Shown in pieces: positions 1-50,316 of a DNA stretch of 50,316 nucleotides. This stretch comes from Candidatus Promineifilaceae bacterium. GTDB lineage: Bacteria; Chloroflexota; Anaerolineae; Promineifilales; Promineifilaceae. The translations under genes and the position numbers were made by a program. The stretch's first letter is position 1, and every line of letters begins with the position of its first letter. The notes beneath the pieces are model-generated. The model searched no databases. It had not been told where the DNA came from and saw nothing but the letters and a program-made list of their open reading frames with translations. The DNA lies in assembly GCA_050292445.1 (NCBI GenBank), contig JBNKLQ010000001.1, forward strand, positions 1-50,316. Direction: 5' to 3'.

Positions 1-510
1 TTTGGGGCCTGCGTTTATGGCGTGCCCGTGATTGCTCATCAGTTGAGCCACCAATTTTTAAGCCAAATGCAGCAAGAAAACGTCGGCGAAACTTATCTGC
101 GCACCAAAGTGGAACGCAATCCAAAGCTGATTTTAGACTGGACGGCTGAAGATTGGGCTGAATTTGAACTGGTGCTGCCGGAAATCACCTACGAGGGCCA
201 GAAGCGGCTGCAATTTGATGATGTGTCGCTGGAACTGGTGCATGTGGGTGGGATTCACGCCGCCGATTCCACCGTCATCAAAGTGGTGAATGATGGCGTT
301 ATGTTCCTGGGCGACTGCTACTATCCTGCTCCGCGCTATGAAAATCCCGCCGACCAGATGTTGGACATGGCGATGCTAGCGAATCTTCTGGATGAGCAGT
401 ATGATCACTACATTGACGGGCACAACGCGCCGATGCAAACGCGCCATGTGCGCCGCATTTTGCGCTCTCAGGCGCTGCTTACTCGCCTGAATGAAACCAA
501 ACCTACCTGA
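1..510 (+). CDS. MBL-fold (beta-lactamase-like) hydrolase-like protein, 3' part; the 5' end is probably outside the window
   Basis: The frame is open from base 1, upstream of the GTG at 22. The segment LELVHVGGIHAADSTVIKVVNDGVMFLGDCYYP resembles the His/Asp region of MBL-fold hydrolases. Stop TGA at 508-510. Confidence 0.45.
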   Translation, partial: FGACVYGVPVIAHQLSHQFLSQMQQENVGETYLRTKVERNPKLILDWTAEDWAEFELVLPEITYEGQKRLQFDDVSLELVHVGGIHAADSTVIKVVNDGVMFLGDCYYPAPRYENPADQMLDMAMLANLLDEQYDHYIDGHNAPMQTRHVRRILRSQALLTRLNETKPT

Positions 511-520
511 GAAAAATTTA

Positions 521-600
521 TTACGAAGGAACAAAGAAACGAAGAAACAAAGCATTTGGCTTCTTTGTTCCTTTCTGCCTTCGTTTCTGCCTTCGTTTCT
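521..600. repeat. Hairpin repeat family 2 (ACGAAGGAAC...GAAGAAACAAAG...GCTTCTTTGTTCCTT), copy A, with internal 12-bp direct repeat TGCCTTCGTTTC x2
   Basis: Shares ACGAAGGAAC, GAAGAAACAAAG and GCTTCTTTGTTCCT blocks in the same order with 33979-34033. The blocks are mutually complementary, giving an imperfect stem-loop. Lies just after the stop at 510. Confidence 0.55.
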
Positions 601-653
601 TTATTATAAGCTTTTGTAGCAAAGCCTTTAATCATTGTGTAAGAAACGTTACT

Positions 654-1457
654 GTGCAGTTGAGTATACTTAATGGCATGAGACGATTTTTGTGGCTTGC
701 CCTTGTTTTGTTGATTTTGACGGCCTGTACCCCAACGGCCGAAACGGCCGTATCACCCCAACCTTCATTTGAAACGGCCGTCCTGCCTACCGCCACCGTT
801 CCCCCGCCTGTTATTGTTGAAGAAAGCGCAGCTGTGGCCGACGCAACGGCCGTTCCTGACCCCACAGCAACCATTGTCGTTGAAGACGAACCAGTCGCCG
901 AGGAAGTTGCTGGTGAAACTGGCGTGGTTAGCGGACGCACGGAAGACGGCGCATTTTTTCTGGGCGACCCCACTGCCCCCATTACCCACATCGACTACTC
1001 TGATTTCCTTTGAGGCAGCTGCCGTGCCTACGTGTTAGGCACAGAGCCGGACATCATTACTAACTATGTGGAAACTGGCCGTGTGAAGCTAATCTTTTGG
1101 CCCGTGCTTAATCATGGTGACCCCAGCGTTTATTCTACACTCACGGCCGAATGCGTGGGCCAACAGGACCCCGATCTATTTTGGATGGTACACGAATATC
1201 TGTTTGAGAATCAGGCTGATTTGTGGCGCGCGGACCGGGATTATTACGTGAATACGGCCGTATCCCTTGGAGCAGACCAGGCACAATTTGAAGCTTGCTA
1301 TGATGGGCCAGACGGCATTGCCACCGTGCTGGAGCTGGATAATATTCGCCGCCAGCGCAGCATCTTCAGCCAACCTATTTTTGATATTAACGGGGAAATT
1401 TTTGTGGGGGCCCAACCTTACGAGGATTTTGCTGCTATTTTTGATGCCCTACCATAA
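654..1457 (+). CDS. DsbA/BdbD-family thiol-disulfide oxidoreductase lipoprotein with an in-frame TGA at 1011-1013 (candidate selenocysteine codon; alternatively a nonsense pseudogene)
   Basis: ORFs 654-1013 and 1032-1457 share one frame and are separated only by the TGA. The N-terminus has a signal peptide with a lipobox-like LILTAC. The thioredoxin-fold part reads FLGDPTAPITHIDYSDFL-[TGA]-GSCRAYV...VETGRVKLIFWPV...DPDLFWMVHEYLFENQ, which is typical of DsbA/BdbD. Confidence 0.6.
1024..1042 (+). promoter_or_regulatory. Candidate bacterial SECIS-like hairpin
   Basis: Perfect 7-bp stem GTGCCTA / TAGGCAC with loop CGTGT. It starts 10 nt after the in-frame TGA, and the loop contains G and U. Confidence 0.35.
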
Positions 1458-1553
1458 CAGAAGCATAACTTTTGATTATTGCTTACTCTGGAACAGGTGG
1501 CCAAACGTACTAACTAGTTGCCTTCTCTGGGTTGCTGTATTAGTATTCAAGTT

Positions 1554-2276
1554 ATGTTCATTGGAAATACAGAAGATGGTGCGGCTAAGTTATTAGTTGT
1601 TGATGATAATATCTCCATTTTGCGTGCTGTAGAGACGGCGTTGCAACGGGAAGCATTTGTGGTGCATACGGCCGTATCTGGTGAAGAAGCATTGTCTGTC
1701 ATCTCCCGCACGGGACTGCCCCATCTGGCCATCATCGATTTAAATATGCCGGGCATGGATGGGTTTGAGCTGTGCGAAGCCATTCACGAATTCTCTGACT
1801 TACCTATCATTATGCTCACCGCCATCGACGATGAAGAAACGGTGGTGTTTGGCTTGGATCGTTACGCGGAAGATTATATTGTGAAACCGTTCCGGCCTGC
1901 GGAGCTGGTAGCACGGGTGCGGCGGGTGCTGCGCCGTATGGGGGATTTTGCCTACACGCTGGAGCCAGTCATCAAAGTGGATGACGATTTGCAGGTTGAT
2001 TTTCCCAATCGTAAAGCGTTTGTGCGGGAGCGGCCAGTGCAGCTTACCCCCACTGAGGCAAAACTGCTCTACATCCTCATGCGCAACGCTGGGCGCACGG
2101 TAACCAATGGCTTTTTGCTGCGCCGTGTCTGGCCCATGGATGATGCATTTGAGGATCGGCTGCACACCCATATTTATCGTTTGCGCCGCAAAATTGAAGT
2201 TTCCCCCAAAGATCCCCATTACATCATTTCTGATTGGGGCACAGGCTACAGCTTTTTGTCCCATCAAGAAGCATAA
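1554..2276 (+). CDS. OmpR/PhoB-type response regulator (receiver plus winged-helix DNA-binding domain)
   Basis: Receiver motifs LLVVDDN, AIIDLNMPGMDG and KPF. The C-terminal winged-helix region reads LTPTEAKLLYILMRNAGRTV...HIYRLRRKIE...GTGYSF. The ORF opens at TTG 1518, but the in-frame ATG at 1554 is preferred. Confidence 0.85.
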   Translation: MFIGNTEDGAAKLLVVDDNISILRAVETALQREAFVVHTAVSGEEALSVISRTGLPHLAIIDLNMPGMDGFELCEAIHEFSDLPIIMLTAIDDEETVVFGLDRYAEDYIVKPFRPAELVARVRRVLRRMGDFAYTLEPVIKVDDDLQVDFPNRKAFVRERPVQLTPTEAKLLYILMRNAGRTVTNGFLLRRVWPMDDAFEDRLHTHIYRLRRKIEVSPKDPHYIISDWGTGYSFLSHQEA

Positions 2277-2317
2277 CAATCCACTTGTCATTCCCGCACA
2301 GGTGGGAATCTACTTCC

Positions 2318-2971
2318 CTAAAACCAACGATCAAAATTAGTTAACACATCGTCAAGCGAGCGATAAAGATAGTCCACGTGGCTGAAATCGGCCGTTTTTG
2401 TTTGGGCATTGGGAATGGCAATCACCGTCATGCCAGCGTTGGCTGCGGCCTGGCTGCCAGGGCCAGAATCCTCTAACGCCAGGCAATCCTGGGGCGCGAT
2501 GCCCAGCCGTTCTGCGGCCAGTAGGTAAATTGCTGGATTGGGCTTGCCATGCGTCACCTCGTCCCCGGCGGCGATGGCCCGGCACTGTTCTTGCAGACCC
2601 AGCTGCTGCAAAATCTCAATGGCGTGGGTGCGCGGACTGGAGGTGGCCACAGCCCAGGGAATGTTGCGGCGGGCAATTTCGGCGTGCAGGGCGTGCAGTC
2701 CGGGCATGGTGGGCACACCGTTGGCCCGAATCTGGCTGTAAATGGCCGCTCGCTTGCTGATGATGGTGGGCACCGCCTCTGGCAGATTGAACAGCTCTTT
2801 GATAACAGGCGTACTTACATCGGCCCGCAGCCCAATAATGTTTTGCACGATCTCTTCGCTGAGCTGATGGCCATACGGCCGTAAATATTCATCCCACGCT
2901 TGTTGTGACAATGGTTCACTATCCACCATCAATCCATCCATATCGAAAACAATTGCTTTGAGCTGGCTCAT
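2318..2971 (-). CDS. HAD-IA family hydrolase (beta-phosphoglucomutase-like)
   Basis: Motif I IVFDMDGLMVDSE, motif II ATSS, and a C-terminal EDSGPG motif. Confidence 0.85.
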   Translation of the reverse strand: MSQLKAIVFDMDGLMVDSEPLSQQAWDEYLRPYGHQLSEEIVQNIIGLRADVSTPVIKELFNLPEAVPTIISKRAAIYSQIRANGVPTMPGLHALHAEIARRNIPWAVATSSPRTHAIEILQQLGLQEQCRAIAAGDEVTHGKPNPAIYLLAAERLGIAPQDCLALEDSGPGSQAAANAGMTVIAIPNAQTKTADFSHVDYLYRSLDDVLTNFDRWF

Positions 2972-2991
2972 TGATTGCCCCGTCTGTTTGA

Positions 2992-3048
2992 ATTTCCCCG
3001 GAAACTTTCAATTAGAGATACGATCCGGAAGTTGGTTTCCGGGGAAAT
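2992..3048. promoter_or_regulatory. Perfect 14-bp inverted repeat in a divergent promoter region
   Basis: ATTTCCCCGGAAAC (2992-3005) and GTTTCCGGGGAAAT (3035-3048) are exact reverse complements. They lie between the divergent genes starting at 2971 (-) and 3114 (+). Confidence 0.4.
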
Positions 3049-3113
3049 GATAAGTTTGAAGATCATCGGCGGGGATTTTACCGTTTCTGTGTTTTTCTGG
3101 CATCCTGCGTAAA

Positions 3114-3626
3114 ATGGGTGGCGTCATGACGAACGCTACTCAGTTGAATTGGTTGCAAAAAATCAATACGCGCATTGCCATGTCGGCGGTGGGTGCCAGG
3201 TTGCTGGCGCGAACGATGCACCATTTGGACCGGGTGGTGCTGCGGTTGGGTAACGGCCGTTTCACGGCCGCCACCCTCCTCACCGGTCTGCAAATCCTCA
3301 GCTTAACCACAACGGGAGCCAAAAGTGGCCAACCTCGCACTGTGCCCCTGGTTGCCATTCCCTACAGCGACAATCGGCTCATTGTGATTGCCTCCAACTG
3401 GGGGCAGACAAAGCATCCCGCTTGGTATCATAATCTTGTGGCCCATCCCCAGGTAACCGTAACGCGAGACGGCCGTTCCCAACCCTACCTTGCCCGGAAA
3501 ACTACCGGTGCTGAACGGAATGCTTGCTGGCAGGCTGCGCTGCAAACCTATCCCGGCTATGCCGCCTACAAACAGCGCACCGAACGGCAAATCCCCGTCA
3601 TTGTGCTCACCCCGCAGACAGATTGA
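3114..3626 (+). CDS. Nitroreductase-family deazaflavin (F420)-dependent oxidoreductase-like protein
   Basis: LSLTTTGAKSGQPRTVPLVAIPYSDNRLIVIASNWGQTKHPAWYHNLVAHPQVTV...YKQRTERQIPVIVL matches the hallmark layout of the F420H2-dependent quinone reductase/DDN family. Confidence 0.8.
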   Translation: MGGVMTNATQLNWLQKINTRIAMSAVGARLLARTMHHLDRVVLRLGNGRFTAATLLTGLQILSLTTTGAKSGQPRTVPLVAIPYSDNRLIVIASNWGQTKHPAWYHNLVAHPQVTVTRDGRSQPYLARKTTGAERNACWQAALQTYPGYAAYKQRTERQIPVIVLTPQTD

Positions 3627-3757
3627 CCTTTCAATTCCTCTCAAATATCGGTTGATTTTTATAGAAACTGGCTGAATCATTCAGAGATGTTTATGATAGG
3701 TTTGTCTTATCACCCGATAAACTACTATTTATACATTCGAGCTATTTGAGAAGGATT

Positions 3758-4897
3758 ATGGCAAAAACGATTTTTTTAACCGGGGCAACAGGATATGTTG
3801 GCTGTCATTTGGCGCACCGCTTTTTGGCAGAGGGACATACCGTTTTGGCGCTTGTGCGGCAAAAGGGCGGACAGTCGGTGCAGCAGCGCATTGCAACGGC
3901 CGTTCTTGAAGTTGGCCCGCTTTCTGATGAAAAAATGGGCAACCTGCTGGCCATCTCCGGCACAGTGGAAGATTCTGCCCAGGAATTAAGCGCCGCCCTG
4001 CGCGCTCAGTTTAGTGACCCTATTGATGAGGTGTGGCACAGTGCCGCCATTTTTAATTTTAAGGAACGGGAACGGCCGTTGGTCGAAGCCACCAATATCG
4101 AAGGCACCCGCCACATGCTCGATCTGACCTGCCAGATCAACCCAGACACGCCGCCTCGCTTCATCTACATCAGCACGGCCTATTGCTTGGGCAGTGAATT
4201 TAATTCGGCCGTGCCCGAAACGATTCCCCAAAAGGTGAATGGGTTTCGTTCAATCTATGAATGGTCCAAGCATAGTGCCGAGCGGTTGGTAGATCAATAT
4301 CAGCAGGCGCAACGGCTGGATGTGACAATTTTCCGGCCTTCGATTGTGATTGGCACGCCAGAAACGGCCGTTCTCTGCAATTCTGGTTACTATCAGGTGC
4401 TTACTGAATGTCGTCGTCTACGCACCTTGCTGGAGCGCCATCAAGGCGATGAGTTCGACGGCAATGTACAGACCCGGCTGCAAGGGAATTCTGGTACGCC
4501 ACTTAACCTGGTCCCCATCGACTTTGTGGTTGAGAGCATGGTGTATCTGGCTCACTGCGTCGATCTGGCCCCAAACCGGACCAATCTGTTCAACATCGTC
4601 AATGAACGACCGCCGACCATCAAAGAAGTGCATCGTGCCCTGGTTTCCAGCCTGGACATGACCGGCTTAAAATTGGTTGCGCCTGATCAGTTTGAAGCAG
4701 AACCCATGAATCAGATAGAAAAAGTGATCAATCGTCGCATTGGCTTCCAAGCGCCCTACATGCACGAGCAGATTCATTTTTCCACCGAGACTTTTCGTCA
4801 GTTTGTGCCCCAGCATGTCTTGCCGCCGCCGCAAGTCAATTGGCGTTACATGGAACAAGTCAACGCCATCTTCCTCGCCCAATTTGAAGATGACTGA
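3758..4897 (+). CDS. SDR-family NAD(P)-dependent oxidoreductase (thioester/acyl reductase-like, epimerase fold)
   Basis: Rossmann motif FLTGATGYVG and catalytic YEWSK (YxxxK). RBS GAAGGA lies 5 nt before the ATG at 3758; the ORF opens at 3746. Confidence 0.8.
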   Translation: MAKTIFLTGATGYVGCHLAHRFLAEGHTVLALVRQKGGQSVQQRIATAVLEVGPLSDEKMGNLLAISGTVEDSAQELSAALRAQFSDPIDEVWHSAAIFNFKERERPLVEATNIEGTRHMLDLTCQINPDTPPRFIYISTAYCLGSEFNSAVPETIPQKVNGFRSIYEWSKHSAERLVDQYQQAQRLDVTIFRPSIVIGTPETAVLCNSGYYQVLTECRRLRTLLERHQGDEFDGNVQTRLQGNSGTPLNLVPIDFVVESMVYLAHCVDLAPNRTNLFNIVNERPPTIKEVHRALVSSLDMTGLKLVAPDQFEAEPMNQIEKVINRRIGFQAPYMHEQIHFSTETFRQFVPQHVLPPPQVNWRYMEQVNAIFLAQFEDD

Positions 4898-5468
4898 AAA
4901 CGAAGCCACCCTCCAATTGCAAATGGTCTGGCCAACTAGCCACCTAACGCAAGCCCTGCCGATAGTACTGCCCACAGGCTATCGTTTGCGTACTTACAAA
5001 CCAGGGGATGAGGCGCGCTTTTTTGAGGTGATGGCTCTGGCCGGTTGGCCGGGTTGGGATGAAGCGAAGTTGAAACCGTGGCTTTACCGAATACTGCCGC
5101 AGGGCTGGTTCATGGCCGTGACTGAAGCAGATGACCAGATTGTGGCCACGGCGATGGCTACCCATGATCATACATGGCTACTGCCGTTTTCTGGTGAGGT
5201 AGGTTGGGTGGCAGGCGATCCGGCACATAAAGGGCGTGGGCTGGGAACGGCCGTCGTCGCGGCCGTTACTGCCCGGTTTATAGAGGTGGGCTACTCGTCC
5301 ATCCATCTGTTTACCGAGCATTACCGGCTGCCAGCCCTTACTATTTACCTGCGATTAGGTTACCTGCCGCTGCTTTACCGCCCAGAGATGTGGGATTTGT
5401 GGCGAGACGTATGTACGGAACTAAGCTGGCCGTATACTCCGGACCTATGGCCCAAGTCACCCGCTTAA
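4890..5468 (+). CDS. GNAT-family N-acetyltransferase
   Basis: The ATG at 4890 overlaps the upstream stop (ATGACTGA). The acetyl-CoA motif is HKGRGLGTAVVAAV. The longer ORF from 4740 overlaps the SDR gene and is not needed. Confidence 0.75.
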   Translation: MTENEATLQLQMVWPTSHLTQALPIVLPTGYRLRTYKPGDEARFFEVMALAGWPGWDEAKLKPWLYRILPQGWFMAVTEADDQIVATAMATHDHTWLLPFSGEVGWVAGDPAHKGRGLGTAVVAAVTARFIEVGYSSIHLFTEHYRLPALTIYLRLGYLPLLYRPEMWDLWRDVCTELSWPYTPDLWPKSPA

Positions 5469-6463
5469 GCCTGATTTTCCGCCACGAGCACTTGTCGGAT
5501 GTAGTACACGGTTTTGTTTTGCGATTCGTAATAGGTGCGCACCATCAGCTCGGCAATGAGGCCCATCACCAGGAACTGTACGCCTAAGATAACCAGCAAA
5601 ACGGCCAGGAGGAGCAACGGCCGTTCCCCAATCTGAAACTCTCTAAAACCGTCCCAAAATTGCCTGGCCTGAACACCGGACCAGATTTTGAGCCAGACGA
5701 GATACAACCCCATCAACGCGCCCAGCCCGCCAAACGAAATGCCCATCATGCCAAATAGATGCATGGGGCGGTCACTGTACTTGCGCAAAAAGAGGATGGT
5801 CACTAAATCGACGATGACGCGGAAGGTGCGCGAGATACCATATTTGGATTTGCCCGCCACCCGCGCCCGATGATTGACGGGCACCTCAGCCATGCTGAAC
5901 CCGGCAAAGCTTACCATTTCTGGAATGAAGCGGTGCAGCTCACCGTACAACTTTAGTTCGTGGGCCACTTCAGCACGGAAGACGCGCAGCGAACAGCCTC
6001 GATCTCGCAAGGGCACATCGCTGAGGCGGGCGATAAGCCGGTTGGCAATAAACGAAGGCAGCTTACGCATCAGGAAAGCATCCTGTCGATTCTCGCGCCA
6101 GCCGTTGACCACATCGTATCCTTCTTCCAATTTTTTAATCATGGCGGGGATGTCAGCTGGGTCATTTTGGCGGTCGGCGTCTATGGTTAGGATATAGCGG
6201 CCACGCGCTTGCTCAAACCCGGCAGCAAAAGCGGCCGTTTGCCCATGATTGCGCCGAAACTGGATACCCACCACGCGATTGTCTGCCTGGTGCAGCGCTT
6301 CTATCACGCTAAAGCTGGTGTCGTTGCTGCCATCATCAATAAAGATGAGTTCATAGCTAAGGGGCTCATCCTTGAGGGCGGCGGTGATTTCCGCCAGCAA
6401 CGGCCGTAAATTTTCTTCTTCGTTATAAACAGGAACAACAATGGATAAATCTAATTTTTTCAT
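5465..6463 (-). CDS. Family 2 glycosyltransferase, polyprenyl-phosphate glycosyltransferase type (GtrB/ArnC/DPM-like) with C-terminal TM helices
   Basis: LSIVVPVYNEEENL, FIDDGSNDTS and DADRQND motifs, followed by two hydrophobic C-terminal helices. The ATG at 6463 is preferred; the ORF opens at GTG 6493. Confidence 0.85.
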   Translation of the reverse strand: MKKLDLSIVVPVYNEEENLRPLLAEITAALKDEPLSYELIFIDDGSNDTSFSVIEALHQADNRVVGIQFRRNHGQTAAFAAGFEQARGRYILTIDADRQNDPADIPAMIKKLEEGYDVVNGWRENRQDAFLMRKLPSFIANRLIARLSDVPLRDRGCSLRVFRAEVAHELKLYGELHRFIPEMVSFAGFSMAEVPVNHRARVAGKSKYGISRTFRVIVDLVTILFLRKYSDRPMHLFGMMGISFGGLGALMGLYLVWLKIWSGVQARQFWDGFREFQIGERPLLLLAVLLVILGVQFLVMGLIAELMVRTYYESQNKTVYYIRQVLVAENQA

Positions 6464-6721
6464 GATTTCAAGTCGTATGCGGGTTGCCTTCACACAGTGA
6501 GCAGGTACTATTTATTGACCTGGGTGCAACGCTCGCACTTTTTTGGGGTTATTGTAAAAGCGGACGCACGTCATACTTTTCCATAGAGAGAATTTTTTTT
6601 GCTAAGCATCTGTGGATCGTGCCGTAAAAGCGAGCGCAATAACCTTAAATGATTCAATCTCGCTTAGGTAAATCTGTATCAGGGCGCGATTATAGCATAT
6701 CGTCACGAAGGATTCGCGTTA

Positions 6722-9195: not shown

Positions 9196-9202
9196 AATTT
9201 GC

Positions 9203-43440: not shown

Positions 43441-43527
43441 GTGATCGGTGTTCAGTATTCGGTAATCAGTAATCAGTGTTCAGATTGATATACTGATTAC
43501 TGACCTACTGATCACTGTTTACTGATT
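43441..43527. repeat. CAGT-unit hairpin element, copy 4 (between convergent genes)
   Basis: GTGATCGGTGTTCAGTATTCGGTAATCAGTAATCAGTGTTCAG-attgatat-ACTGATTACTGACCTACTGATCACTGTTTACTGAT. Confidence 0.7.
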
Positions 43528-44316: not shown

Positions 44317-45180
44317 TTAGGCGTTGAACTGTTGGATGGCGTTGGTCATGACGGCCGTATCCGGCTTCTGTCCCGTCCACAAAGCAAACGCCTTGGCTCC
44401 TTGCTGTACCAGCATTCCCAATCCGTTAATTGCCCAACAACCCGCTGCCTGGGCCTGCTGCATCAGCCGGGTGTGGGGCGGATTGTAAACCAGATCGTAT
44501 ACGATGGCTTCGGCAGGGAAAGGCAAGTTAGTCGGCCAGATCGAGGTCATATCGTTGGGGGTCATGCCCAGCGGCGTGCTGTTGATGATGAGCGGTGCGG
44601 ACAAAGTGGCAGAAACTTTTTCTAAATCGCTCAGTGGTTGGCTAATGAGCTGCGCTTGGGGAAGATACGGCCGTAAATCCGCAATCAACTCCGCTGCCTG
44701 GTCACCCCGTCGAGCTAAAATGTGAACCCGTGCCTCTGACTTGGCTAGTCCATAAGCCACCGCTCGGGCTGAGCCACCAGCACCTAACAGCAAACAATCT
44801 CGTCCGGTCACAGAAACGCCCTGTGCTTGCAAGTCGGCTAAAAAGCCAGACCAATCGGTGTTGTGCCCAGTAAGACGGCCGTTTTCGCCCACCACAATTG
44901 TATTCACCGCGCCAATCGCCTGTGCCCCCGGTTCTAATTCGTCTAGCAAGGGCATGACGGCTTGCTTGTGGGGGACCGTCACGTTTACCCCACGAAAACC
45001 GAGGGCAGATAGGCTGGAAACGGCCGTTGCCACATTTTCTGGTGCAACAGGCAGCGGTACGTAGGCCCAATTCAACCCTAAAGCTTCTGCCGCTGCGTTG
45101 TGCATTGCTGGGCTAAAACTGTGGGAAACGGGCCAGCCAATGAGGCCGATAAGTTGGGTCTTGCCGTTGATTGGGATCAT
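44317..45180 (-). CDS. aroE: Shikimate dehydrogenase
   Basis: GWPVSHSFSPAMHNAA, GVNVTVPHKQ, LLGAGGSARAV and VYDLVYNP. Confidence 0.92.
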   Translation of the reverse strand: MIPINGKTQLIGLIGWPVSHSFSPAMHNAAAEALGLNWAYVPLPVAPENVATAVSSLSALGFRGVNVTVPHKQAVMPLLDELEPGAQAIGAVNTIVVGENGRLTGHNTDWSGFLADLQAQGVSVTGRDCLLLGAGGSARAVAYGLAKSEARVHILARRGDQAAELIADLRPYLPQAQLISQPLSDLEKVSATLSAPLIINSTPLGMTPNDMTSIWPTNLPFPAEAIVYDLVYNPPHTRLMQQAQAAGCWAINGLGMLVQQGAKAFALWTGQKPDTAVMTNAIQQFNA

Positions 45181-45184: not shown

Positions 45185-45284
45185 CAGTGTTCAGTAGGTC
45201 AGTAATCAGTAGGTCAGTAATCAGTAGGTCAGTCGGTGCGGTCGGATTACTGAATACTGTTTCACTGAATACTGATTACTGATC
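45185..45284. repeat. CAGT-unit hairpin element, copy 5 (intercistronic, aroA-aroE), with a 15-bp tandem sub-repeat
   Basis: Left arm CAGTGTT CAGTAGGT CAGTAAT CAGTAGGT CAGTAAT CAGTAGGT CAGTCGGT. Right arm ATTACTG AATACTG TTTCACTG AATACTG ATTACTG ATC. Confidence 0.75.
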
Positions 45285-46610
45285 AATCCATTCCATATTT
45301 GCGCCGAGGGATTGCATCATTTCTACAAAGCCGGGGAAGCTGTCGGCGATGCAGCTTGCGTCATGGACCAGGGTCAGGCCGTGAGTGATTAGTCCGGCCA
45401 CAGCCAGCGACATGCCTAGCCGGTGATCGTCATGGCTGTTTACCTCGCCGCCAAACAGCCGCATTGGCCCCGCTACCGAGAAACCGTCGGGACTTTCCAT
45501 CATTTCCACGCCCAGCTTGCGTAGCTCGCCTGCCAAAACCGAGATGCGGTCCACTTCCTTCACGCGTAGTTCGGCAGCATCACTCACCTGGCTAACGCCT
45601 GCGGCCTGCGTGGTGGCCACGGCCCAGACGGGCAGCTCGTCGATGCCGCGCACCACGGTGTGGCCATTAACATTTGTGCTGTGCAGCTCGCTAAAAGAGA
45701 CGGTGAGGTCGCCCAGCCGCTCGCCGCCGCTGAGATGTTCATTGTGTACGGTGAGTTCGGCCCCCATCGCTTGCAGCATATCCAGAATGCCGGTGCGGGT
45801 CTCGTTAAGGCCCACGCCCGCGATGGTGATTTGGGAATGGGGCACGATGGCGGCAGCGACCAGAGGGAAAGCGGCAGAGGAGGGATCGGCAGGAACGGTG
45901 AGGTCTAACGGCCGTAACCGCCAACCACCCTCCGGCGCAGCGGGCAAAATCACCCAATCCCCTTCAGTCTGTACCGGCACGCCCATCGCTTGCAGCATCC
46001 GCTCCGTGTGGTCACGGGCTGGGCCAGGCTGGTAGACGCGGGTTTTGCCAGTGGCGTACAACCCGGCCAGCAGGATGGCGCTTTTCACCTGGGCGCTGGC
46101 TACGTTCATACGGTATTCAAAGCCATGTAGCTGGCTGGGGGAGATGGCGAGGGGGCAACGGCCGTTTTCGGCCACAATATTCGCCCCCATTTCGCTCAGG
46201 GGGGCGGTGATGCGGCGCATGGGTCGTTTGCGCAGCTGTTCGCTGCCGTCTAGCACGCTGGGGAAACTTTGCCCGGCCAATAGTCCAGCCAGCAGGCGCA
46301 TGCCTGTTCCGGCGTTGCGGCAGTCCAATGGCTGCGTGGGCACTTGCCAACCATGCAGCCCACGCCCCTCAATGGTTAAATCCCAGGCAATGTCCGAGCG
46401 TTTGTCAATTTGCACAGAAACACCGAGGTCCTGGATGATTTGCAACGTGGCCAGTGTATCCCCCGCAGGCAGCCAGCGGCGAACGTGGCTGGTGCCTTCA
46501 GCCAGCGAGGCCAGCATTACCGCCCGGTGGCTAATTGACTTGTCGCCAGGAACCGAGATAATGCCTTGCAGCGGCGTTTTTTGGGGGCGAACCAGTAGTT
46601 GTTCACTCAT
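45276..46610 (-). CDS. aroA: 3-phosphoshikimate 1-carboxyvinyltransferase (EPSP synthase)
   Basis: VPGDKSISHRAVMLASLAEGTS, LDCRNAGTGMRLLAG, RPMRRI and DHRLGMSLAVAGL. Confidence 0.95.
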   Translation of the reverse strand: MSEQLLVRPQKTPLQGIISVPGDKSISHRAVMLASLAEGTSHVRRWLPAGDTLATLQIIQDLGVSVQIDKRSDIAWDLTIEGRGLHGWQVPTQPLDCRNAGTGMRLLAGLLAGQSFPSVLDGSEQLRKRPMRRITAPLSEMGANIVAENGRCPLAISPSQLHGFEYRMNVASAQVKSAILLAGLYATGKTRVYQPGPARDHTERMLQAMGVPVQTEGDWVILPAAPEGGWRLRPLDLTVPADPSSAAFPLVAAAIVPHSQITIAGVGLNETRTGILDMLQAMGAELTVHNEHLSGGERLGDLTVSFSELHSTNVNGHTVVRGIDELPVWAVATTQAAGVSQVSDAAELRVKEVDRISVLAGELRKLGVEMMESPDGFSVAGPMRLFGGEVNSHDDHRLGMSLAVAGLITHGLTLVHDASCIADSFPGFVEMMQSLGANMEWIDQ

Positions 46611-47428
46611 CGTTTGAAGCGGGCCATGCCCTGGGCTATTTTTTGCGTCTTCTTATCGCTGCGGTCGGCATCCAGGCGGGCTACGGGCGGACGGCCCTGG
46701 TTTTTGGCTTCCAACAGGGCGTGATGCACCAGTAGATGGCTATGCCGCCGCATAAATTCTGTGTGGCTGGCGTCGGGGTTTTCTGCCAAATAGGCTTCTT
46801 TGGCCGCTTCCATCTTCTCTTTGATGTCTGTGATTTCGGCGCTGGGCAGGTAAGCGGATGTAGTGCTAAATTCCAGGCGGTCGGCCACAGGCACCAGGCG
46901 AGTAAGAATCAATTCGCCTACTTCCACATTACCGCGTCCACCAGCTTCATACACCGCAAATGTTTCATCTGTGAAGGTGTCGCGCAGCTGCAATTTCTGC
47001 CCTTCATAAGCCATCAGTTCATAAAGCGCTCCCGCACCGGCGTTTAACCAATCGGCCGCAATTTTTTGCTGATGCACAGATAAATCTGCCATCTGCTCTT
47101 CGGCATACAGCTGGATCAACCGTTGACCATTGGCTGGCGTGTAATCAAATACAAACCAGTCGAAGAAGCGTAATGCTTCTGGCTGGCTCATTTGCTCTGC
47201 ATTGGATGCGTCGTAATACTCATTCCAGTAGAGGGGCAGGGCGTTGGCGAAATCTTCAGCGAACCGTTCGTCGCGGGCAAATTTGAGCAGATCGCGCCGA
47301 ATAAAGCCAGCGGCACGCTGAATGTGGCTGCGCTCCTTTTCGGCTGCCTGGTCTTCTTTCATGTGGCATTTTTTGTACTTTAGGCCGCTGCCACAGTAAC
47401 AGGGATCGTTTCTTCCGGGTTTGCTCAT
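46607..47428 (-). CDS. SEC-C metal-binding motif protein
   Basis: N-terminal GRNDPCYCGSGLKYKKCH. Both ends overlap the neighbouring genes by 4 nt. Confidence 0.8.
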   Translation of the reverse strand: MSKPGRNDPCYCGSGLKYKKCHMKEDQAAEKERSHIQRAAGFIRRDLLKFARDERFAEDFANALPLYWNEYYDASNAEQMSQPEALRFFDWFVFDYTPANGQRLIQLYAEEQMADLSVHQQKIAADWLNAGAGALYELMAYEGQKLQLRDTFTDETFAVYEAGGRGNVEVGELILTRLVPVADRLEFSTTSAYLPSAEITDIKEKMEAAKEAYLAENPDASHTEFMRRHSHLLVHHALLEAKNQGRPPVARLDADRSDKKTQKIAQGMARFKR

Positions 47429-48192
47429 AATTCACCTTCCAACTGTGCCAAAATAGGCAGCAGTTCTTCTAATTTGGAGATTGTAAAATTCGGCCGTACG
47501 CCGTCAAGTTGCCGCTCAAGATGGGGTGGCGACATCAGTACGCTGGTTATGCCCGCGTCGTTGGCCCCGGCAATATCGTTGGCTGGACGGTCGCCGACAA
47601 AGACGGATTCTTCTGGCTGCACGTCCAATAACTCTAAAGCATGCCAATAAATAAAGGGATGTGGCTTCATAAAACCCACATCACCAGAGGTAAGTCGCAC
47701 GTCTAGATAGTCTAGAATGCCATAAGCGCGCAATTCTACATCACGCATCCACATGGGCTGTATGGCATTGGTAATAAGGCCAATTTTGTAGCCACTGTTT
47801 TTGAGCTGTTCCAGTACGGGGAGGGTGTCATCGAAGGGGGCGACGCCGGGCACGGTGTGCCAATTATAGGCGCGCAGGACAGCATCAATATCGAGCTGGG
47901 CTTCGTCCAGTCCGCAAGCGAGCAGAAAATCTTGCATGACCTGGGCAAAAGAGATCATGGTCCACTCTTTTTTGGCTTCTGTCCAGGCCTGAATTAAAGT
48001 TCTGCGGAAGAGGTTCCAAAACTCATCAAAAGGGGGCAAGGTATATTCTGCGGCAGCGAGGTAACGGTAGACGTTTTGCATATGTTCCGTTTCAACGGCC
48101 GTCATATCCCCTTCCAGCCCTGACCAATCGATCAAGGTGTCGTCCATATCAAACAGAACGGCTTTGATGCGCTGGTTTTCTCGGTCACTCAT
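47425..48192 (-). CDS. HAD-family hydrolase
   Basis: Motif I AVLFDMDDTLIDW, motif II ITNA and motif IV VGDRPANDIAGANDAG. Confidence 0.82.
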   Translation of the reverse strand: MSDRENQRIKAVLFDMDDTLIDWSGLEGDMTAVETEHMQNVYRYLAAAEYTLPPFDEFWNLFRRTLIQAWTEAKKEWTMISFAQVMQDFLLACGLDEAQLDIDAVLRAYNWHTVPGVAPFDDTLPVLEQLKNSGYKIGLITNAIQPMWMRDVELRAYGILDYLDVRLTSGDVGFMKPHPFIYWHALELLDVQPEESVFVGDRPANDIAGANDAGITSVLMSPPHLERQLDGVRPNFTISKLEELLPILAQLEGEL

Positions 48193-48218: not shown

Positions 48219-48893
48219 TTAGATTTTCAGGTCCGCTGCTTTTGATTTCTTTTCGTTACGTGCTTTCAAATATTCTACAAGCATGGGCAGAACGGATACT
48301 AAAATGATGCCGATAATGACAAACTCAAAATTGGCTTTGACGAAGGGAATGTTGCCAAAGAAGTTGCCCATAAATAGGAAAAGCGATACCCACAAAAAGC
48401 CACCAACGATATTGTAGGAAATGAAACGGCCGTATTCCATCGTACCTACACCAGCTACAAACGGGGCAAACGTGCGCACAATGGGCACAAAGCGCGCCAG
48501 TACGATTGTTTTCCCGCCATGCTTGGCATAAAACGCCTCCGTTTTTTCCAGGTACTCTTTTTTCAACACCTTCTTCAACCAGCGATTTTGGGTGTCAAAA
48601 ATTGCCAGGCCCAACTTGTTCCCAATCCAGTAATTGACAGTATCGCCTAAAACGGCCGCTACAAACAAAAGCCCCCATAAAAGAAAGATATTTAGAGAAC
48701 CCAATGCGGCAAATGTCCCAGCCGCAAATAAGAGCGAATCGCCCGGCAAAAACGGCGTGATAACTAATCCTGTCTCAATAAAAATAACCACAAACAGCAA
48801 GCCATAAGTCCAGGTGCCATAAGTCGTGATGGCAACGTTCAAATACTCATCTAAGTGAAGAAACAAATCAACAATGCTTTTTAGAAAATCCAT
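48219..48893 (-). CDS. DedA-family (VTT domain) membrane protein
   Basis: [46 protein letters not shown] and multiple TM helices. Confidence 0.85.
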
Positions 48894-48914
48894 GATTTAC
48901 CTTACAAAAACTTA

Positions 48915-49937
48915 TTAATCGCTAGCTTCCAAACGGGCAGCCAAGCGATCCACGAGGAGAATAACACTGATGCCCACGAGTGCCAAGACGAGGGCAATGC
49001 CAAACTCAGTGATGGCGGCGCTGCTATTGAAGCTGGGCAAGATATTGGCTTGCTCAATGACCAGTTTGTGCCCATCGCTGTTGAGAATAAATTGTCCGAC
49101 ATCATCACGCAGCCAGTCCAAATCCAATTTCCAGGGCCAAATTTTGCGCAGGCTGCCTACCATCAAACCAATGAGCAGGGCAACGGTGAGATCGTGGTAT
49201 CGGTTGAAGAGCCAACCAAGGACCTGAGCAAAGGTGATGAGTCCAATAACAGCTCCAATTGCTACAAAGATGAGGGGAACGGCCGCAGCCAAATCGCCGC
49301 CGCGCAAATCGTTTACTGAGCCTAAAACATATTGGTATTTACCGAGCAAAACAAGCAGAAACGCACCCGAAATACCGGGCAGGATGAGGGCGCAGCTGGC
49401 CACAGCACCGCTGAGAATTAGGAACCACCAGGCGTTGGGCGTGTGTACGGGAACCAGGCCAACCAGCAAATAAGCGACGACTGCTCCTGCCAGCAGCACC
49501 GCAAAAAGAGGCGGCTGCCACTGCTTAATCCGTTTGCTGACAACAAAGACGGAGGCCAGCACCAGGCCGAAGAAGAAGCTCCATAAAAAGACAGGTTGAT
49601 TTACCAGCAAGTTTTCCAGAGCGTGTGAAAGGGTGATGATGGCAATAAAGATGCCCACCGCCACAGAAAGCAGAAATTCCCAATTGAGAATTTGAAAAGT
49701 GTCTTTGAGGCGAAATTTAAGTGCAGCTTGCAGGAAGTGGGGTTGGCCAATGGTGCGAATCGAGTCAATGAGTTCTTCGTAGATACCCAGGATGAAGGCC
49801 ATTGTGCCACCAGAAACGCCAGGAACGATGTCTGAGGCGCCCATGCAGATGCCACGGGCGACGATGCCGAGATAGTCAGGAATCGTGCGTTGTTTTTTGG
49901 TGGATACGGCCGTTTCTTCCAGTGTTGTTTTTTGCAT
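48915..49937 (-). CDS. DUF368-family polytopic membrane protein
   Basis: GASDIVPGVSGGTMAFILGIYEELI and a second half with LILPGISGAFLLVLLGKY. The ATG at 49937 is preferred; the ORF opens at TTG 49970. Confidence 0.82.
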   Translation of the reverse strand: MQKTTLEETAVSTKKQRTIPDYLGIVARGICMGASDIVPGVSGGTMAFILGIYEELIDSIRTIGQPHFLQAALKFRLKDTFQILNWEFLLSVAVGIFIAIITLSHALENLLVNQPVFLWSFFFGLVLASVFVVSKRIKQWQPPLFAVLLAGAVVAYLLVGLVPVHTPNAWWFLILSGAVASCALILPGISGAFLLVLLGKYQYVLGSVNDLRGGDLAAAVPLIFVAIGAVIGLITFAQVLGWLFNRYHDLTVALLIGLMVGSLRKIWPWKLDLDWLRDDVGQFILNSDGHKLVIEQANILPSFNSSAAITEFGIALVLALVGISVILLVDRLAARLEASD

Positions 49938-50049
49938 AATTGGTCTCTTTGAGTTGTGAATTTCGGTCAAACAAACGCAGAATTATAACACAGCTCCACG
50001 AGACATCGAGAGGCACTTATGAAATTAGCCAAGATGATACAGTCTTCTT

Positions 50050-50090
50050 AGAAAAGAGGAGAGCTCCGGGGGAGGGGGTCCCGGAGCTCT
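50050..50090 (-). terminator. Rho-independent terminator-like hairpin downstream of the acyl-CoA dehydrogenase gene
   Basis: AGAGCTCCGGG-ggagggggt-CCCGGAGCTCT, an 11-bp perfect stem. On the minus strand it is followed by CCTCTTTTCT. Confidence 0.45.
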
Positions 50091-50179
50091 TAAATAAAAG
50101 GAGAAAAAGTTGTGTGTCCTTGCGTGCTTTTTATTATACGGATGGCAACTATCTCGTAAATGGGACAATGGCACTATAT

Positions 50180-50316
50180 TTATTTGCGGAACAGCTCACG
50201 CACAATAATTTCCCGCTGAATTTGGCTGGTACCTTCGTAAATTTGGTAAATCTTGGCGTCGCGCATCAGTTTTTCCACGGGATATTCTGACATGTAGCCG
50301 TAGCCACCAAAGACCT
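50180..50316 (-). CDS. Acyl-CoA dehydrogenase, C-terminal 45 codons (the gene continues beyond the window)
   Basis: The reverse-strand translation reads ...[44 protein letters not shown], the conserved ACAD C-terminal helix. The ORF is too short to appear in the supplied ORF track. Confidence 0.75.

Follow-up and report, generated by a model that had tools for sequence, protein, structure and literature searches.

One-off variants of HIP1, the cyanobacterial iterated word, concentrate at positions 1 and 8, as reported by Elhai (2015; PMC4390886), and orthologous HIP1 sites are conserved far above background (Xu et al. 2018; PMC5861425). The 8-mer ACGGCCGT, which recurs throughout a stretch of 50,316 nt (the window), resembles HIP1 in that its own one-off variants concentrate at the same two positions and its orthologous conservation lies far above background; unlike HIP1, it is a different word, and it is found in Chloroflexota instead of cyanobacteria. 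The source, which is not a cyanobacterium, is a filamentous wastewater organism of the family Promineifilaceae, near Candidatus Leptofilum, and the HIP1 word is absent. The first-pass annotation had proposed an HIP1-like palindrome with a different word, a reading with which over-representation, dispersal, reading frames, variant positions and orthologous conservation all agree. The assignment of ACGGCCGT to the HIP class of iterated palindromes, as a new word in a new phylum, is supported by every testable feature. The word is not among the alternate HIPs named in the available portions of Elhai (PMC4390886), and no paper in our literature search treats it as a genomic repeat. ACGGCCGT is a second instance of the "highly iterated palindrome" phenomenon, itself unexplained, and one that lies outside cyanobacteria and has apparently gone undescribed.

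The hyper-abundance of the palindrome was confirmed. A machine count gave 86 exact copies in the 50,316 nt (1,709 per Mb), close to the 85 or so estimated in the first-pass annotation, whose example starts were correct to within 0-4 nt (2875 and not 2876, 6400 and not 6396, 49906 and not 49904). The copies are given below by open reading frame, each followed by its codon phase, where phase 1 reads Thr-Ala-Val, phase 2 [N/H/D/Y]-Gly-Arg and phase 3 x-Arg-Pro-x; fractions are the relatives carrying the copy, and L numbers denote individual relatives.

ORF 654-1013(+): 744-751 (1), 774-781 (1), 846-853 (1)
Thioredoxin-like ORF 1032-1457(+): 1254-1261 (1)
Response regulator ORF 1518-2276(+): 1668-1675 (1)
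HAD hydrolase ORF 2318-2971(-): 2875-2882 (3)
ORF 3114-3626(+): 3253-3260 (2), 3469-3476 (2)
ORF 3746-4897(+): 3896-3903 (1), 4072-4079 (3), 4364-4371 (1)
GNAT ORF 4740-5468(+): 5247-5254 (1)
Glycosyltransferase ORF 5465-6493(-): 5617-5624 (3), 6400-6407 (3)
ORF 6722-7690(+): 6769-6776 (3), 7046-7053 (1), 7295-7302 (1)
TPR ORF 7927-9138(+): 8308-8315 (1), 8864-8871 (2)
Chaperonin ORF 9620-11275(+): 9695-9702 (1), sole copy in this 1.65-kb gene
Intergenic: 11452-11459
ORF 11526-12338(+): 11708-11715 (3), 11884-11891 (2)
ORF 12428-14980(-): 12864-12871 (1), 13092-13099 (1), 14312-14319 (2), 14724-14731 (1), 14826-14833 (1)
Aminotransferase ORF 15157-16398(+): 15232-15239 (1)
ORF 16879-17898(-): 17133-17140 (3), 17355-17362 (3), 17534-17541 (1), 17615-17622 (1), 17834-17841 (1)
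ORF 17898-19418(-): 18283-18290 (1), 18818-18825 (3)
Intergenic, 35 nt upstream of ORF 17898-19418(-): 19453-19460
Hybrid histidine kinase ORF 21019-24474(-): 21464-21471 (1), 21482-21489 (1), 21740-21747 (1), 22362-22369 (3), 22706-22713 (1), 24389-24396 (1)
ABC transporter ORF 24732-26666(-): 24855-24862 (2; 7/8 aligned relatives), 25194-25201 (2; 8/8), 26487-26494 (2; 8/8)
ABC transporter ORF 26663-28528(-): 26795-26802 (2; 7/8), 27134-27141 (2; 8/8), 28474-28481 (3; 5' end, possibly upstream of the true start; all aligned relatives)
Intergenic: 29298-29305, kept in L001, L004, L009, L078 and L002; ATGGCCGT in L073
ORF 29369-30178(+): 29480-29487 (1; all aligned relatives), 29717-29724 (1)
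Hsp70-like ORF 31456-33882(-): 31558-31565 (2; ACGGCCAT in L001), 31775-31782 (1), 31998-32005 (3), 32339-32346 (1; 10/10), 33823-33830 (2; 11/11)
NUDIX ORF 34084-34638(+): 34562-34569 (2; 11/11)
PEP carboxylase ORF 34645-37428(+): 35242-35249 (1; 11/11), 35917-35924 (1; 11/11), 36116-36123 (2; only 4/11, a lineage-specific gain), 36569-36576 (2; 11/11)
ORF 37463-38377(-): 37767-37774 (1; lineage-specific, other relatives having AGGGCGGT and similar), 38265-38272 (1)
ORF 38386-38916(-): 38593-38600 (2)
Ser/Thr kinase-PP2C ORF 38922-41957(-): 39538-39545 (1), 39663-39670 (2), 39994-40001 (1; GCGGCCGT in L001), 40145-40152 (3), 40201-40208 (1), 40587-40594 (2), 40753-40760 (1), 41292-41299 (2; ACGGCTGT in L073), 41367-41374 (2)
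Intergenic, divergent spacer: 42414-42421
Protein kinase ORF 42607-43440(+): 43154-43161 (2)
ORF 43519-44304(-): 44270-44277 (1)
Shikimate dehydrogenase ORF 44317-45180(-): 44351-44358 (1), 44667-44674 (3), 44875-44882 (2; GCGGCCGT in L001), 45020-45027 (1)
EPSP synthase ORF 45276-46610(-): 45908-45915 (3), 46158-46165 (2)
HAD ORF 47425-48192(-): 48095-48102 (1)
ORF 48219-48893(-): 48426-48433 (2)
ORF 48915-49970(-): 49906-49913 (1)

Dinucleotide-preserving shuffles of the window averaged 0.70 copies and never held more than 3, versus the 86 observed. Markov models of orders 0-3 gave an expectation of 0.9-3.5 copies in the window and order 4 gave 11.7; by composition the observed-to-expected ratio was about 95, roughly 100 times chance. 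A Markov model predicting a similar number from 6- and 7-mer frequencies had been proposed at the outset as grounds for abandoning the claim, and the maximal-order model does formally predict 85.7 copies in the window. The comparison is circular, however, and invalid as a criterion, since ACGGCCGT itself makes up 86 of the 101 ACGGCCG 7-mers and 86 of the 119 CGGCCG 6-mers in the window; after deletion of the motif copies, the same formula gives 6.8. What the value of 85.7 (101 x 101/119) shows is that the two flanks of the CGGCCG core are statistically independent of each other given the core.

The coding copies are spread over unrelated genes of both strands, with codon phases 1, 2 and 3 represented 43, 24 and 15 times, and four copies are intergenic (11452, 19453, 29298 and 42414). 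Since all three phases and the spacers are used, a codon-usage artefact of one frame was rejected, as the first-pass annotation had argued from copies in both strands and all frames. The spacer positions it had named were intergenic at 11452, 19453 and 29298, but the copy at 28474 lies within a reading frame, 26663-28528(-), when the longest ORF is called. Almost every permissive peptide context is occupied, so that the motif is saturated: 42 of 43 Thr-Ala-Val contexts able to carry ACGGCCGT do so, as do 24 of 29 x-Gly-Arg and 15 of 17 Arg-Pro contexts, and Thr-Ala-Val is itself over-used about 6.5-fold. The motif was likewise correctly judged not to be a piece of a longer mobile element. No word of at least 14 nt containing ACGGCCGT is present more than twice in the window, and it is therefore not part of a longer repeat; a mobile repeat as its source was rejected, the copies being dispersed, with uninformative flanking sequence and no longer repeat in common.

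Beyond ACGGCCGT, the CGGCCG core occurs in the window another 33 times between different flanking letters; these occurrences span 735-49286 and start at the following positions.

735, 1143, 2388, 3264, 4205, 5259, 6231, 8272, 9992, 12033, 12936
19997, 22849, 26453, 27525, 30871, 31046, 31181, 32210, 32573, 32990, 34282
35686, 36748, 36861, 38834, 39459, 40399, 43604, 47052, 47490, 48652, 49279

Thirty of these differ from ACGGCCGT once, at position 1 or 8, where the one-off variants cluster, matching the earlier estimate of about 30 variants that keep the core. These outer variants are moderately conserved, being the same in 62 of 111 comparisons with relatives. Without an A/T flank the core is enriched only about 1.4-fold, from which it follows that selection acts on the 8-mer (two 7-mers) as its unit, and the EagI hexamer CGGCCG was rejected in that role. 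Our best inference is that ACGGCCGT would be driven by a replication- or repair-coupled process keyed to a sequence-specific modification enzyme. Maintenance by an orphan CGGCCG methyltransferase together with a repair bias was put forward as plausible in the first-pass annotation; a matching methyltransferase was not found in approximately 1.6 Mb of related DNA.

For 9 of 11 relatives, 81-100% of the comparisons at orthologous ACGGCCGT sites showed the motif retained, versus 14-37% for ordinary 8-mers, and this high conservation persists where the amino acids are identical. Among the relatives compared, sites also arise independently via multiple substitutions, which answers in the affirmative the question of repeated gain raised in the first-pass annotation. 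Decayed sites were found at three positions in the window.

25150-25157: ACTGCCGT, with ACGGCCGT here in 6/8 aligned relatives
26619-26626: ACGGCCAT, a synonymous C2-to-T change on the coding strand, with ACGGCCGT in 8/8 aligned relatives
31720-31727: ACGGCCAT, with ACGGCCGT in 10/10 aligned relatives

The excess of ACGGCCGT is also present in relatives of the source bacterium and in their viruses, and sister lineages have dialects consisting of GCGGCCGC or of CGGCCG with mixed flanks. The first-pass annotation also offered a role for ACGGCCGT as an uptake signal as a possible alternative. An insertion-sequence island contained zero ACGGCCGT sites, and a tailed-phage contig was saturated with the motif, at 3.7 sites per kb.

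The window holds 86 copies of ACGGCCGT in its 50,316 nt, equivalent to 1,709 per Mb or about 1.7 per kb, and the example positions listed in the first-pass annotation proved right to within 0-4 nt. At the window G+C content of 52.1%, the word is enriched approximately 95-fold by composition. When the window was shuffled 100 times with its dinucleotides preserved, the mean number of copies was 0.70 and the maximum was 3, and Markov models of orders 0 to 3 predicted 0.9, 0.8, 1.7, and 3.5 copies, with 11.7 predicted at order 4. The palindrome is the commonest 8-mer of the window, and the next-ranked 8-mers are overlaps of it. The first-pass annotation had set its claim against a Markov model built from 6- and 7-mer frequencies. 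Such a maximal-order model predicts 85.7 copies (101 x 101/119), numerically a match to the 86 observed, but the test is circular because the word itself accounts for most of what goes in: 86 of 101 occurrences of either 7-mer and 86 of 119 CGGCCG cores. Once the copies of ACGGCCGT are removed, the same formula gives 6.8.

Given a CGGCCG core, the left A and the right T occur independently, each with a probability of 0.85, and the enriched entity therefore behaves as two strand-specific 7-mers, ACGGCCG. The unit is the 8-mer ACGGCCGT, formally acting as two such independent 7-mers. In another 33 CGGCCG cores of the window the flanks differ, for 30 of them by a single change at position 1 or 8, in agreement with the approximately 30 variants keeping the core that had been counted initially. 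Variants with one change at positions 2-7 occur 0-3 times each, and the outer positions account for 30 of the 44 one-off sites in the window. In a pool of 39 word-rich loci from related genomes (751 kb, 1,378 sites), ACGGCCGT was enriched 85-fold, with observed-to-expected ratios (O/E) of 50-165 across the individual loci. Position-1 variants within the pool were found at 7.2x (T), 3.9x (G), and 1.7x (C), inner variants at 0.25-0.97x with the exception of the C2-to-T product (ATGGCCGT/ACGGCCAT) at 2.1x, and CGGCCG lacking both the A and the T flank at only about 1.4x.

With genes modeled as the longest open reading frames (ORFs), 90% of the window is coding. Eighty-two copies of ACGGCCGT lie within ORFs on both strands, the first base of the word falling at codon positions 1, 2, and 3 in 43, 24, and 15 cases, respectively. 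The other 4 of the 86 copies are intergenic, about the share expected with approximately 10% of the window non-coding, such that there is no enrichment in spacers or terminators. These counts bear out the initial description of copies in all reading frames, on both strands, and in spacers. Positions flanking the word carry at most 0.4 bit each, with a weak symmetric preference for G-A-W before and W-T-C-C after ACGGCCGT that is seen in all three codon phases. No word of at least 14 nt containing ACGGCCGT is present more than twice in the window, and the copies are therefore not part of a longer repeat. The initial statement that the palindrome is not a piece of a longer mobile element thus stands, and a longer dispersed repeat of the REP or MITE type is ruled out by the absence of shared flanking sequence. 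The genes bearing the word are ordinary and unrelated, and encode PEP carboxylase, GroEL, ABC transporters, kinases, shikimate-pathway enzymes, glycosyltransferases, and others; no tRNA genes were found in the window.

The word leaves a marked imprint on codons and proteins. It is present in 42 of the 43 Thr-Ala-Val contexts (phase 1, named for the codon position of the first base), 24 of the 29 Asn/His/Asp/Tyr-Gly-Arg contexts (phase 2), and 15 of the 17 x-Arg-Pro-x contexts (phase 3) of the window, as compared to 6.0, 1.5, and 0.2 expected from window codon usage, and overall approximately 95% of compatible codon contexts carry it. With the real proteins and their codon usage taken as given, 7.7 copies would be expected, and 81-82 were observed. 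The tripeptides are themselves overrepresented. Thr-Ala-Val occurs 43 times versus 6.6 expected from amino-acid composition, a six- to eightfold inflation, while the permutations VAT, AVT, and TVA occur 8, 1, and 5 times in the window, and Asn-Gly-Arg occurs 14 times versus 2.3 expected. Related lineages lacking the word have only 4-5 Thr-Ala-Val tripeptides per 32-42 kb of coding DNA. It is therefore the DNA word that shapes the protein sequences, and not the protein sequences that call for the word. A nucleotide-level force fixes synonymous codons and inflates Thr-Ala-Val and Asn-Gly-Arg in the proteome, and the saturation with ACGGCCGT is a strong example of DNA-level drive shaping a proteome.

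These figures bear directly on the reading that the palindrome is a by-product arising without dedicated machinery, be it from codon or amino-acid preference, from a REP/MITE mobile repeat, or from an assembly artefact. The equality of the maximal-order Markov expectation with the count and the predominance of phase 1, with 43 of the 82 coding copies, are what such an origin would predict. The equality is, however, circular, with its residual of 6.8, and a codon or peptide artefact is ruled out by the shortfall of 7.7 expected versus 81-82 observed copies and by the use of all phases. Furthermore, the same word is found at orthologous sites in dozens of independently assembled genomes. We regard a by-product as scarcely credible.

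Examination of the PEP carboxylase encoded in the window revealed 95% identity to that of the uncultured Anaerolineae metagenome-assembled genome (MAG) CAJQMR01 and 89-91% identity to those of Candidatus Leptofilum gracile, proximum, and sp.; an exact-match look-up of the protein returned no record. The lineage of the window is Chloroflexota; Ardenticatenia; Promineifilales; Promineifilaceae. Leptofilum-type relatives are filamentous bacteria of activated sludge (PMC10746286). The survey covered 80 PEP carboxylase loci from assemblies made by many independent groups, and 77 of the loci entered a PEP carboxylase tree. In a large clade, ACGGCCGT is found at 1.2-2.8 copies per kb, the O/E being 50-165 and the G+C contents 42-60%. 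This clade takes in Leptofilum and Leptovillus MAGs and reaches down to approximately 65% PEP carboxylase identity to the window. Among the PEP carboxylase loci of GC-rich Promineifilum and more distant genomes, nothing comparable to ACGGCCGT was found. The cyanobacterial palindrome HIP1, GCGATCGC, has 0 copies in the window, and CGATCG has 4.

Sister lineages have swapped ACGGCCGT for related forms, which we term dialects:

L054 (JAHDWJ01), 1-22763, and L040 (JAGNBF01), 1-13854: PEP carboxylase loci with the dialect GCGGCCGC, the NotI word, which makes up 52 of the 62 CGGCCG cores in L054
L034, L077, and L079: PEP carboxylase loci with a mixed-flank CGGCCG dialect, CGGCCG having an O/E of 10-13

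In the two loci with the NotI word, GCGGCCGC is present in 39 of 48 Ala-Ala-Ala contexts (encoded GCGGCCGCN) and in 15 of 21 and 15 of 21 of the other contexts. The ACGGCCGT contexts of these loci go unused (2 of 4, 0 of 9, and 0 of 15), and ACGGCCGT is at background there. Each dialect is thus saturated in its own lineage, and the dialects fit an evolving specificity of one reader or modifier. Flank preference also varies among carriers of ACGGCCGT itself. Chromosomal density peaks, at 2.2-2.8 per kb, in a sub-clade of seven loci (L008, L010, L011, L013, L014, L015, and L061) with approximately 76% PEP carboxylase identity, which prefers C/G beside the word (CACGGCCGTG), whereas in the clade of the window A/T is preferred and C/G is avoided.

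Individual sites were compared between the window and syntenic relatives at 75-85% nucleotide identity. Window sites were kept at the orthologous position in 37 of 40 cases in L001 and likewise in L073, in 20 of 22 in L004, 17 of 21 in L078, 16 of 16 in L002, 8 of 10 in L005, and 6 of 9 (67%) in L052. Positional conservation was 81-100% in 9 of the 11 relatives, as compared to 14-37% for fully conserved ordinary 8-mers, with binomial P values of 1e-11 to 1e-18. Where the amino acids are identical in both genomes, 93-100% of ACGGCCGT sites are also identical in nucleotides, versus 22-45% of controls (binomial P of 1e-10 to 1e-18). These conservation tests are compatible with either selection or drive and do not separate the two.

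Nearly all relatives keep the word at three positions where the window has a decayed site:

25150: ACTGCCGT
26619-26626: ACGGCCAT
31720-31727: ACGGCCAT

The commonest route of decay is C-to-T at the first cytosine, yielding ACGGCCAT/ATGGCCGT, a change that is synonymous in codon phase 2. Enrichment of this product is as expected from deamination of 5-methylcytosine at that base and provides a weak hint of methylation there. As the most enriched inner variant (2.1x), it argues against efficient very-short-patch correction at the same base. Most inner one-off variants have arisen by recent decay; in 23 of 47 comparisons, the full word stands in the relative. Outer variants behaved otherwise, and were unchanged in 62 of 111 comparisons with relatives and matched by a full word in 1 of 111.

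Sites have also been gained. The first-pass annotation had suggested aligning orthologues for repeated gains by independent substitution, and such lineage-specific sites, each needing 2-4 substitutions, were found in L078 at window position 35584 (GCCGAGGT-type elsewhere), in L009 at 27626, and in L002 at 34339. In the PEP carboxylase codon alignment, L054 has GCGGCCGC sites of its own where other lineages lack the core, and at alignment column 2080 the lineages with A and T flanks have ACGGCCGT while L054 and L040 have GCGGCCGC. The conservation and variant patterns of ACGGCCGT match those described for HIP1 by Elhai 2015 and Xu et al. 2018.

IMG/VR was scanned for two or three close-set motifs, and the word-rich viral contigs recovered carry 2-4 copies of ACGGCCGT per kb. 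IMGVR_UViG_3300048592_001391 (65.5 kb, of which 43 kb were analysed as L151, L207, L233, and L238) encodes a large terminase, a portal, and head-morphogenesis proteins, indicative of a tailed phage. It has 158 copies in the 43 kb, or 3.7 per kb, about twice the density of the host, and its contexts are saturated (52 of 54, 56 of 62, and 22 of 25, or about 90-96%), with the word lying inside the terminase, portal, and head genes. IMGVR_UViG_3300033417_000002 (100 kb; L097 and L175) is similarly saturated at 2.8-3.7 per kb. It encodes RadC, ParA, a P22-type antirepressor, an SLT (lytic) transglycosylase, and FtsK/SpoIIIE, and is a plasmid- or conjugative-type element. Stretches free of the motif are rare in word-rich loci. 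One of 4 kb in L045, a relative's PEP carboxylase locus, at 17667-21639, has a G+C of 0.465 versus 0.515 and encodes a DDE transposase; this IS island fits newly arrived DNA that lacks the word. ACGGCCGT is a HIP-class word in essentially all long-resident DNA of a large Promineifilaceae clade, phages included.

Another motif-free stretch, of 4.5 kb in the locus L012 at 10976-15488, encodes isocitrate lyase, malate synthase, and an HTH/IrrE-like regulator, and may be a horizontally acquired glyoxylate-shunt island. The metagenome scans also returned degenerate tandem arrays of an approximately 12-nt unit, TGTACACGGCCG, in which ACGGCCGT reaches 6-18 copies per kb. These were present in L306 at 74-2126 and in about 30 other short metagenome contigs (e.g., L329, L328, L303, L292, and L372) from a few JGI samples (Ga0056108, Ga0056133-35, Ga0209259, and Ga0209459). 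The arrays make up most of the triple-motif metagenome matches besides genuine genomic contigs, and were rejected as evidence for the dispersed word, being an unrelated tandem repeat.

A rival reading is an uptake or transformation signal, in which the word would be the preferred substrate of a putative competence machinery and would spread by molecular drive, as proposed for the Neisseria DUS and the Pasteurellaceae USS. DUS and USS occur at about one copy per kb, lie inside genes with effects on peptides, have dialects on a conserved core, and are depleted in recently acquired DNA. ACGGCCGT, at 1.7 per kb and conserved in position, shares the kb-scale density, the in-gene peptide effects, and the lineage dialects on a constant core. 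DUS and USS are, however, asymmetric 9-12-mers, often found as inverted pairs in terminators, whereas ACGGCCGT is a perfect 8-bp palindrome without spacer or terminator enrichment. The IS island lacks ACGGCCGT, as depletion in acquired DNA would have it, but the tailed phage and the conjugative-type element have the word to saturation, with densities up to twofold those of the host; uptake drive works on the alleles of the chromosome and not on the genomes of phages. In keeping with uptake, genes for type IV pili are found in most genomes of wastewater Chloroflexota (PMC10746286). The natural transformation of Synechococcus is increased by methylated HIP1 (bioRxiv 2024.09.10.611283), and there is a correlation between uptake genes and the abundance of HIP1 (bioRxiv 10.64898/2026.06.24.733823). 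On balance, we consider an uptake signal fairly unlikely to be the explanation.

Saturation of phages and mobile elements is expected from selection for mimicry if the word is a protective or recombination-promoting 'self' tag, Chi-like or anti-degradation, read by a nuclease or helicase such that host and phage are both selected to carry copies. The longest gap between copies in the window, 2,011 nt, is shorter than with random placement (P = 0.036), as such a tag would predict, and HIP1-enhanced integration was called reminiscent of Chi by its authors (bioRxiv 2024.09.10.611283). Neither ACGGCCGT nor its weak flank extension, both symmetric, has the asymmetry or strand skew of Chi-type sites. 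Known Chi sites are asymmetric, orientation-skewed, and only few-fold enriched, in contrast to a symmetric word enriched approximately 95-fold. Moreover, saturation of about 95% over approximately 10,000 redundant sites would need an implausibly large fitness effect per site, and we judge a self tag unlikely as the primary cause.

The symmetry of the site and of its weak extension would suit an array of sites bound by some abundant dimeric protein of the nucleoid, of segregation, or of chromosome organisation, as Xu et al. proposed for HIP1, whose 10-90 kb periodicity motivated their suggestion of a structural role (PMC5861425). Conservation of the sites is consistent with selection, and their spacing in the window is slightly more even than random, with a coefficient of variation (CV) of 0.87 versus 0.99. 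The regularity is nonetheless weak (P = 0.11), and a need of phages for a nucleoid site of the host, at double the density seen in the host itself, would be surprising. Such an array is a very unlikely source of the pattern.

The palindromes that are missing from the window reveal a separate pressure. CCGCGG, CTCGAG, GTCGAC, and CCTAGG have 0 copies each; GGGCCC, ACTAGT, AGATCT, and TTCGAA have 1 copy each, and GGCGCC, AGGCCT, and CACGTG 2 copies each, with 11-16 of each expected. CCGCGG, CTCGAG, GTCGAC, CCTAGG, GGGCCC, GGCGCC, and AGGCCT, each with 13-16 copies expected, are thereby at 0-0.15x, and the tetramers CTAG, TATA, and TCGA are at 0.34-0.46x. Missing 6-bp palindromes are the usual signature of restriction pressure. 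TGGCCA, on the other hand, is enriched 4.3x in the window and CGGCCG 7.6x, and since CGGCCG is enriched where other palindromes are avoided, the word is not a restriction target in these cells.

No methyltransferase was found in the window by Pfam searches of 30 proteins and NCBIfam searches of 8 more. The search was widened with phmmer, using M.HhaI and Dam seed sequences, and with motif regular expressions, applied to the ORFs of the window, the 80 PEP carboxylase loci, 160 viral loci, and 120 metagenome loci. No methyltransferase of matching specificity was found in these approximately 1.6 Mb of related, viral, and metagenomic DNA, a sampling too sparse to establish absence. Genes for Dam-like D12-class DNA methyltransferases were detected near PEP carboxylase in two word-rich genomes (L031, 13017-13892, minus strand, and L041, 2184-3044, minus strand). 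They are not at the same position in close relatives, and are therefore accessory. In cyanobacteria, the D12 family includes both GATC and GGCC enzymes, as noted by Elhai (PMC4390886). A word-rich viral contig (L239, 8314-10738, IMGVR_UViG_3300033072_001034) encodes an MvaI/BcnI-family endonuclease, an N4-cytosine methyltransferase with an SPPY motif whose best PDB match is 8s9n, and an IS1595 transposase. The specificity of this cassette is probably CCWGG/CCSGG-like and unrelated to ACGGCCGT. Neither the D12 enzymes nor the L239 methylase is linked to the word.

The force that maintains ACGGCCGT is strong, directional, and exerted at the nucleotide level on each half-site, and it acts on phage and conjugative DNA and not on the IS island. 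With some 10,000 redundant sites per genome near saturation, at an amino-acid cost, a transmission bias is easier to envisage than organism-level selection on each copy, and a phage saturated to double the density of the host suggests a process within the cell and not an uptake of pieces of chromosome. A bias of this kind could arise if a sequence-specific enzyme directed mismatch repair or gene conversion toward one allele. Alternatively, the main force may be selection acting on the organism for some function of the word.

We tentatively favor a mechanism modeled on that suggested for HIP1, in which a host-encoded, sequence-specific DNA-modification enzyme would mark ACGGCCGT. The putative marker would most likely be an orphan cytosine methyltransferase that reads CGGCCG plus a flanking base and lacks a restriction partner. 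When a mismatch or heteroduplex involves the site, the marked allele would then be favored by a process coupled to replication, repair, or recombination. The resulting biased-conversion ratchet would be of the type Elhai proposed for HIP1, by which the word could reach saturation in DNA that has replicated long in these cells, with newly arrived DNA lacking it. A role as a 'self' tag in recombination or transformation, as with methylated HIP1, might be a secondary benefit and would not be required for the drive. A partial precedent is the Dcm/Vsr very-short-patch repair of E. coli, a methyltransferase-linked bias that turns near-cognate sequences into the cognate site. Its effect is a modest few-fold shift, and no function is needed for individual sites. 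ACGGCCGT differs from this system in its approximately 95-fold enrichment and in the inclusion of positions other than C/T, namely the A/T flanks.

The preference for an orphan cytosine methyltransferase stems from the pairing of cyanobacterial hyper-abundant palindromes with matching methyltransferases; according to Elhai, all HIP-bearing cyanobacteria carry a matching enzyme, usually an orphan (PMC4390886). Elhai proposed for HIP1 a methyl-directed repair ratchet, in a version that needs a G before the methylated C (PMC4390886). Several considerations stand against the mechanism. With A/T rather than G/C as the flanking base of ACGGCCGT, the G-meC rule is not directly applicable; GCGGCCGC obeys it, whereas ACGGCCGT, with C2 as the methylated base, would not. 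In addition, Elhai's ratchet should stall near 1 site per kb, in contrast to the approximately 95% of contexts occupied here and the 3.7 sites per kb in phage. Xu et al. 2018 argued that HIP1 conservation exceeds what biased repair alone would give, and favored selection (PMC5861425).

The resemblance to HIP1 is extensive. In the two principal HIP1 papers (PMC4390886; PMC5861425), HIP1 is likewise a GC-rich palindrome of 8 bp that has about 0.5-2.5 copies per kb and an O/E of tens to hundreds, found in coding DNA in all frames and in non-coding DNA, with one-off variants biased to the first and last base (PMC4390886) and with sites conserved above control octamers, the one-off sites less so (PMC5861425). 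Both words have a C-G-N-N-C-G core around a 4-bp core, these being classical methyltransferase sites (CGATCG/GATC in HIP1 and CGGCCG/GGCC in ACGGCCGT). All defining features of the HIP class that were open to test were observed with ACGGCCGT, and it is almost certainly a genuine element of this class. It differs from HIP1 in being another word in another phylum, the Chloroflexota, and in having as yet only a putative methyltransferase. Saturation of a phage genome may be a further difference.

The exchange of one hyper-abundant palindrome for a related one also has a cyanobacterial parallel in the alternate HIPs of Elhai 2015 (GGGATCCC, TCGATCGA, GGCGCC, rCCGGy, and GCsGC). These are sporadic in single cyanobacterial genomes, whereas ACGGCCGT marks a large multi-genus clade, and neither ACGGCCGT nor GCGGCCGC is among the alternates named in the sections consulted. 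A full-text literature search of incomplete coverage returned no paper on ACGGCCGT as a genomic repeat and none linking CGGCCG to Chloroflexi or to genomic palindromes. None was found to treat iterated palindromes and Chloroflexota together, although an earlier description elsewhere is possible, and the main text of the Nanomotif preprint makes no mention of ACGGCCGT. What is new here is the phylum, the word, its clade-wide distribution, the sister-lineage dialects, and the phage saturation, the phenomenon itself being known from HIP1. Together, the word, its dialects (GCGGCCGC and mixed-flank CGGCCG), the saturated phage, and a putative modifier or reader coupled to proteome-rewriting biased conversion probably represent a second HIP system, one that evolved independently outside the cyanobacteria.

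The HIP1 problem, selection versus repair bias, has been open since the 1990s, with roles in chromosome structure, mismatch repair, or DNA uptake under debate and with evidence from one phylum and essentially one word. ACGGCCGT offers a natural comparative experiment in the Chloroflexota, with a different word, dialect switches, and saturated phages, and is likely to surprise those who specialise in HIP1, in DUS/USS, or in drives of genome composition. The comparison would ask which genes for methyltransferases, nucleases, or uptake go with the word. Since the dialects switch between close lineages, the responsible genes could, if the proposal is true, be found by simple comparative genomics, which has not been possible for HIP1 in 30 years. 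Many long-read assemblies of relatives exist, and their raw nanopore data could carry methylation information. The word also provides a sharp k-mer signature by which Promineifilaceae contigs can be binned and phages and plasmids linked to these abundant wastewater filaments. We predict that genetic work in this group may require DNA that bears the word or its modification.

Several other genes of the window are recorded here as observations in their own right:

28829-31411: a gene for a DUF2089 zinc-ribbon/HTH protein, followed by two genes for SHOCT-like DUF2089-C proteins
38922-41957, minus strand: a gene for a 1,011-aa Ser/Thr kinase fused to a PP2C phosphatase
21019-24474, minus strand: a gene for a 1,151-aa hybrid histidine kinase
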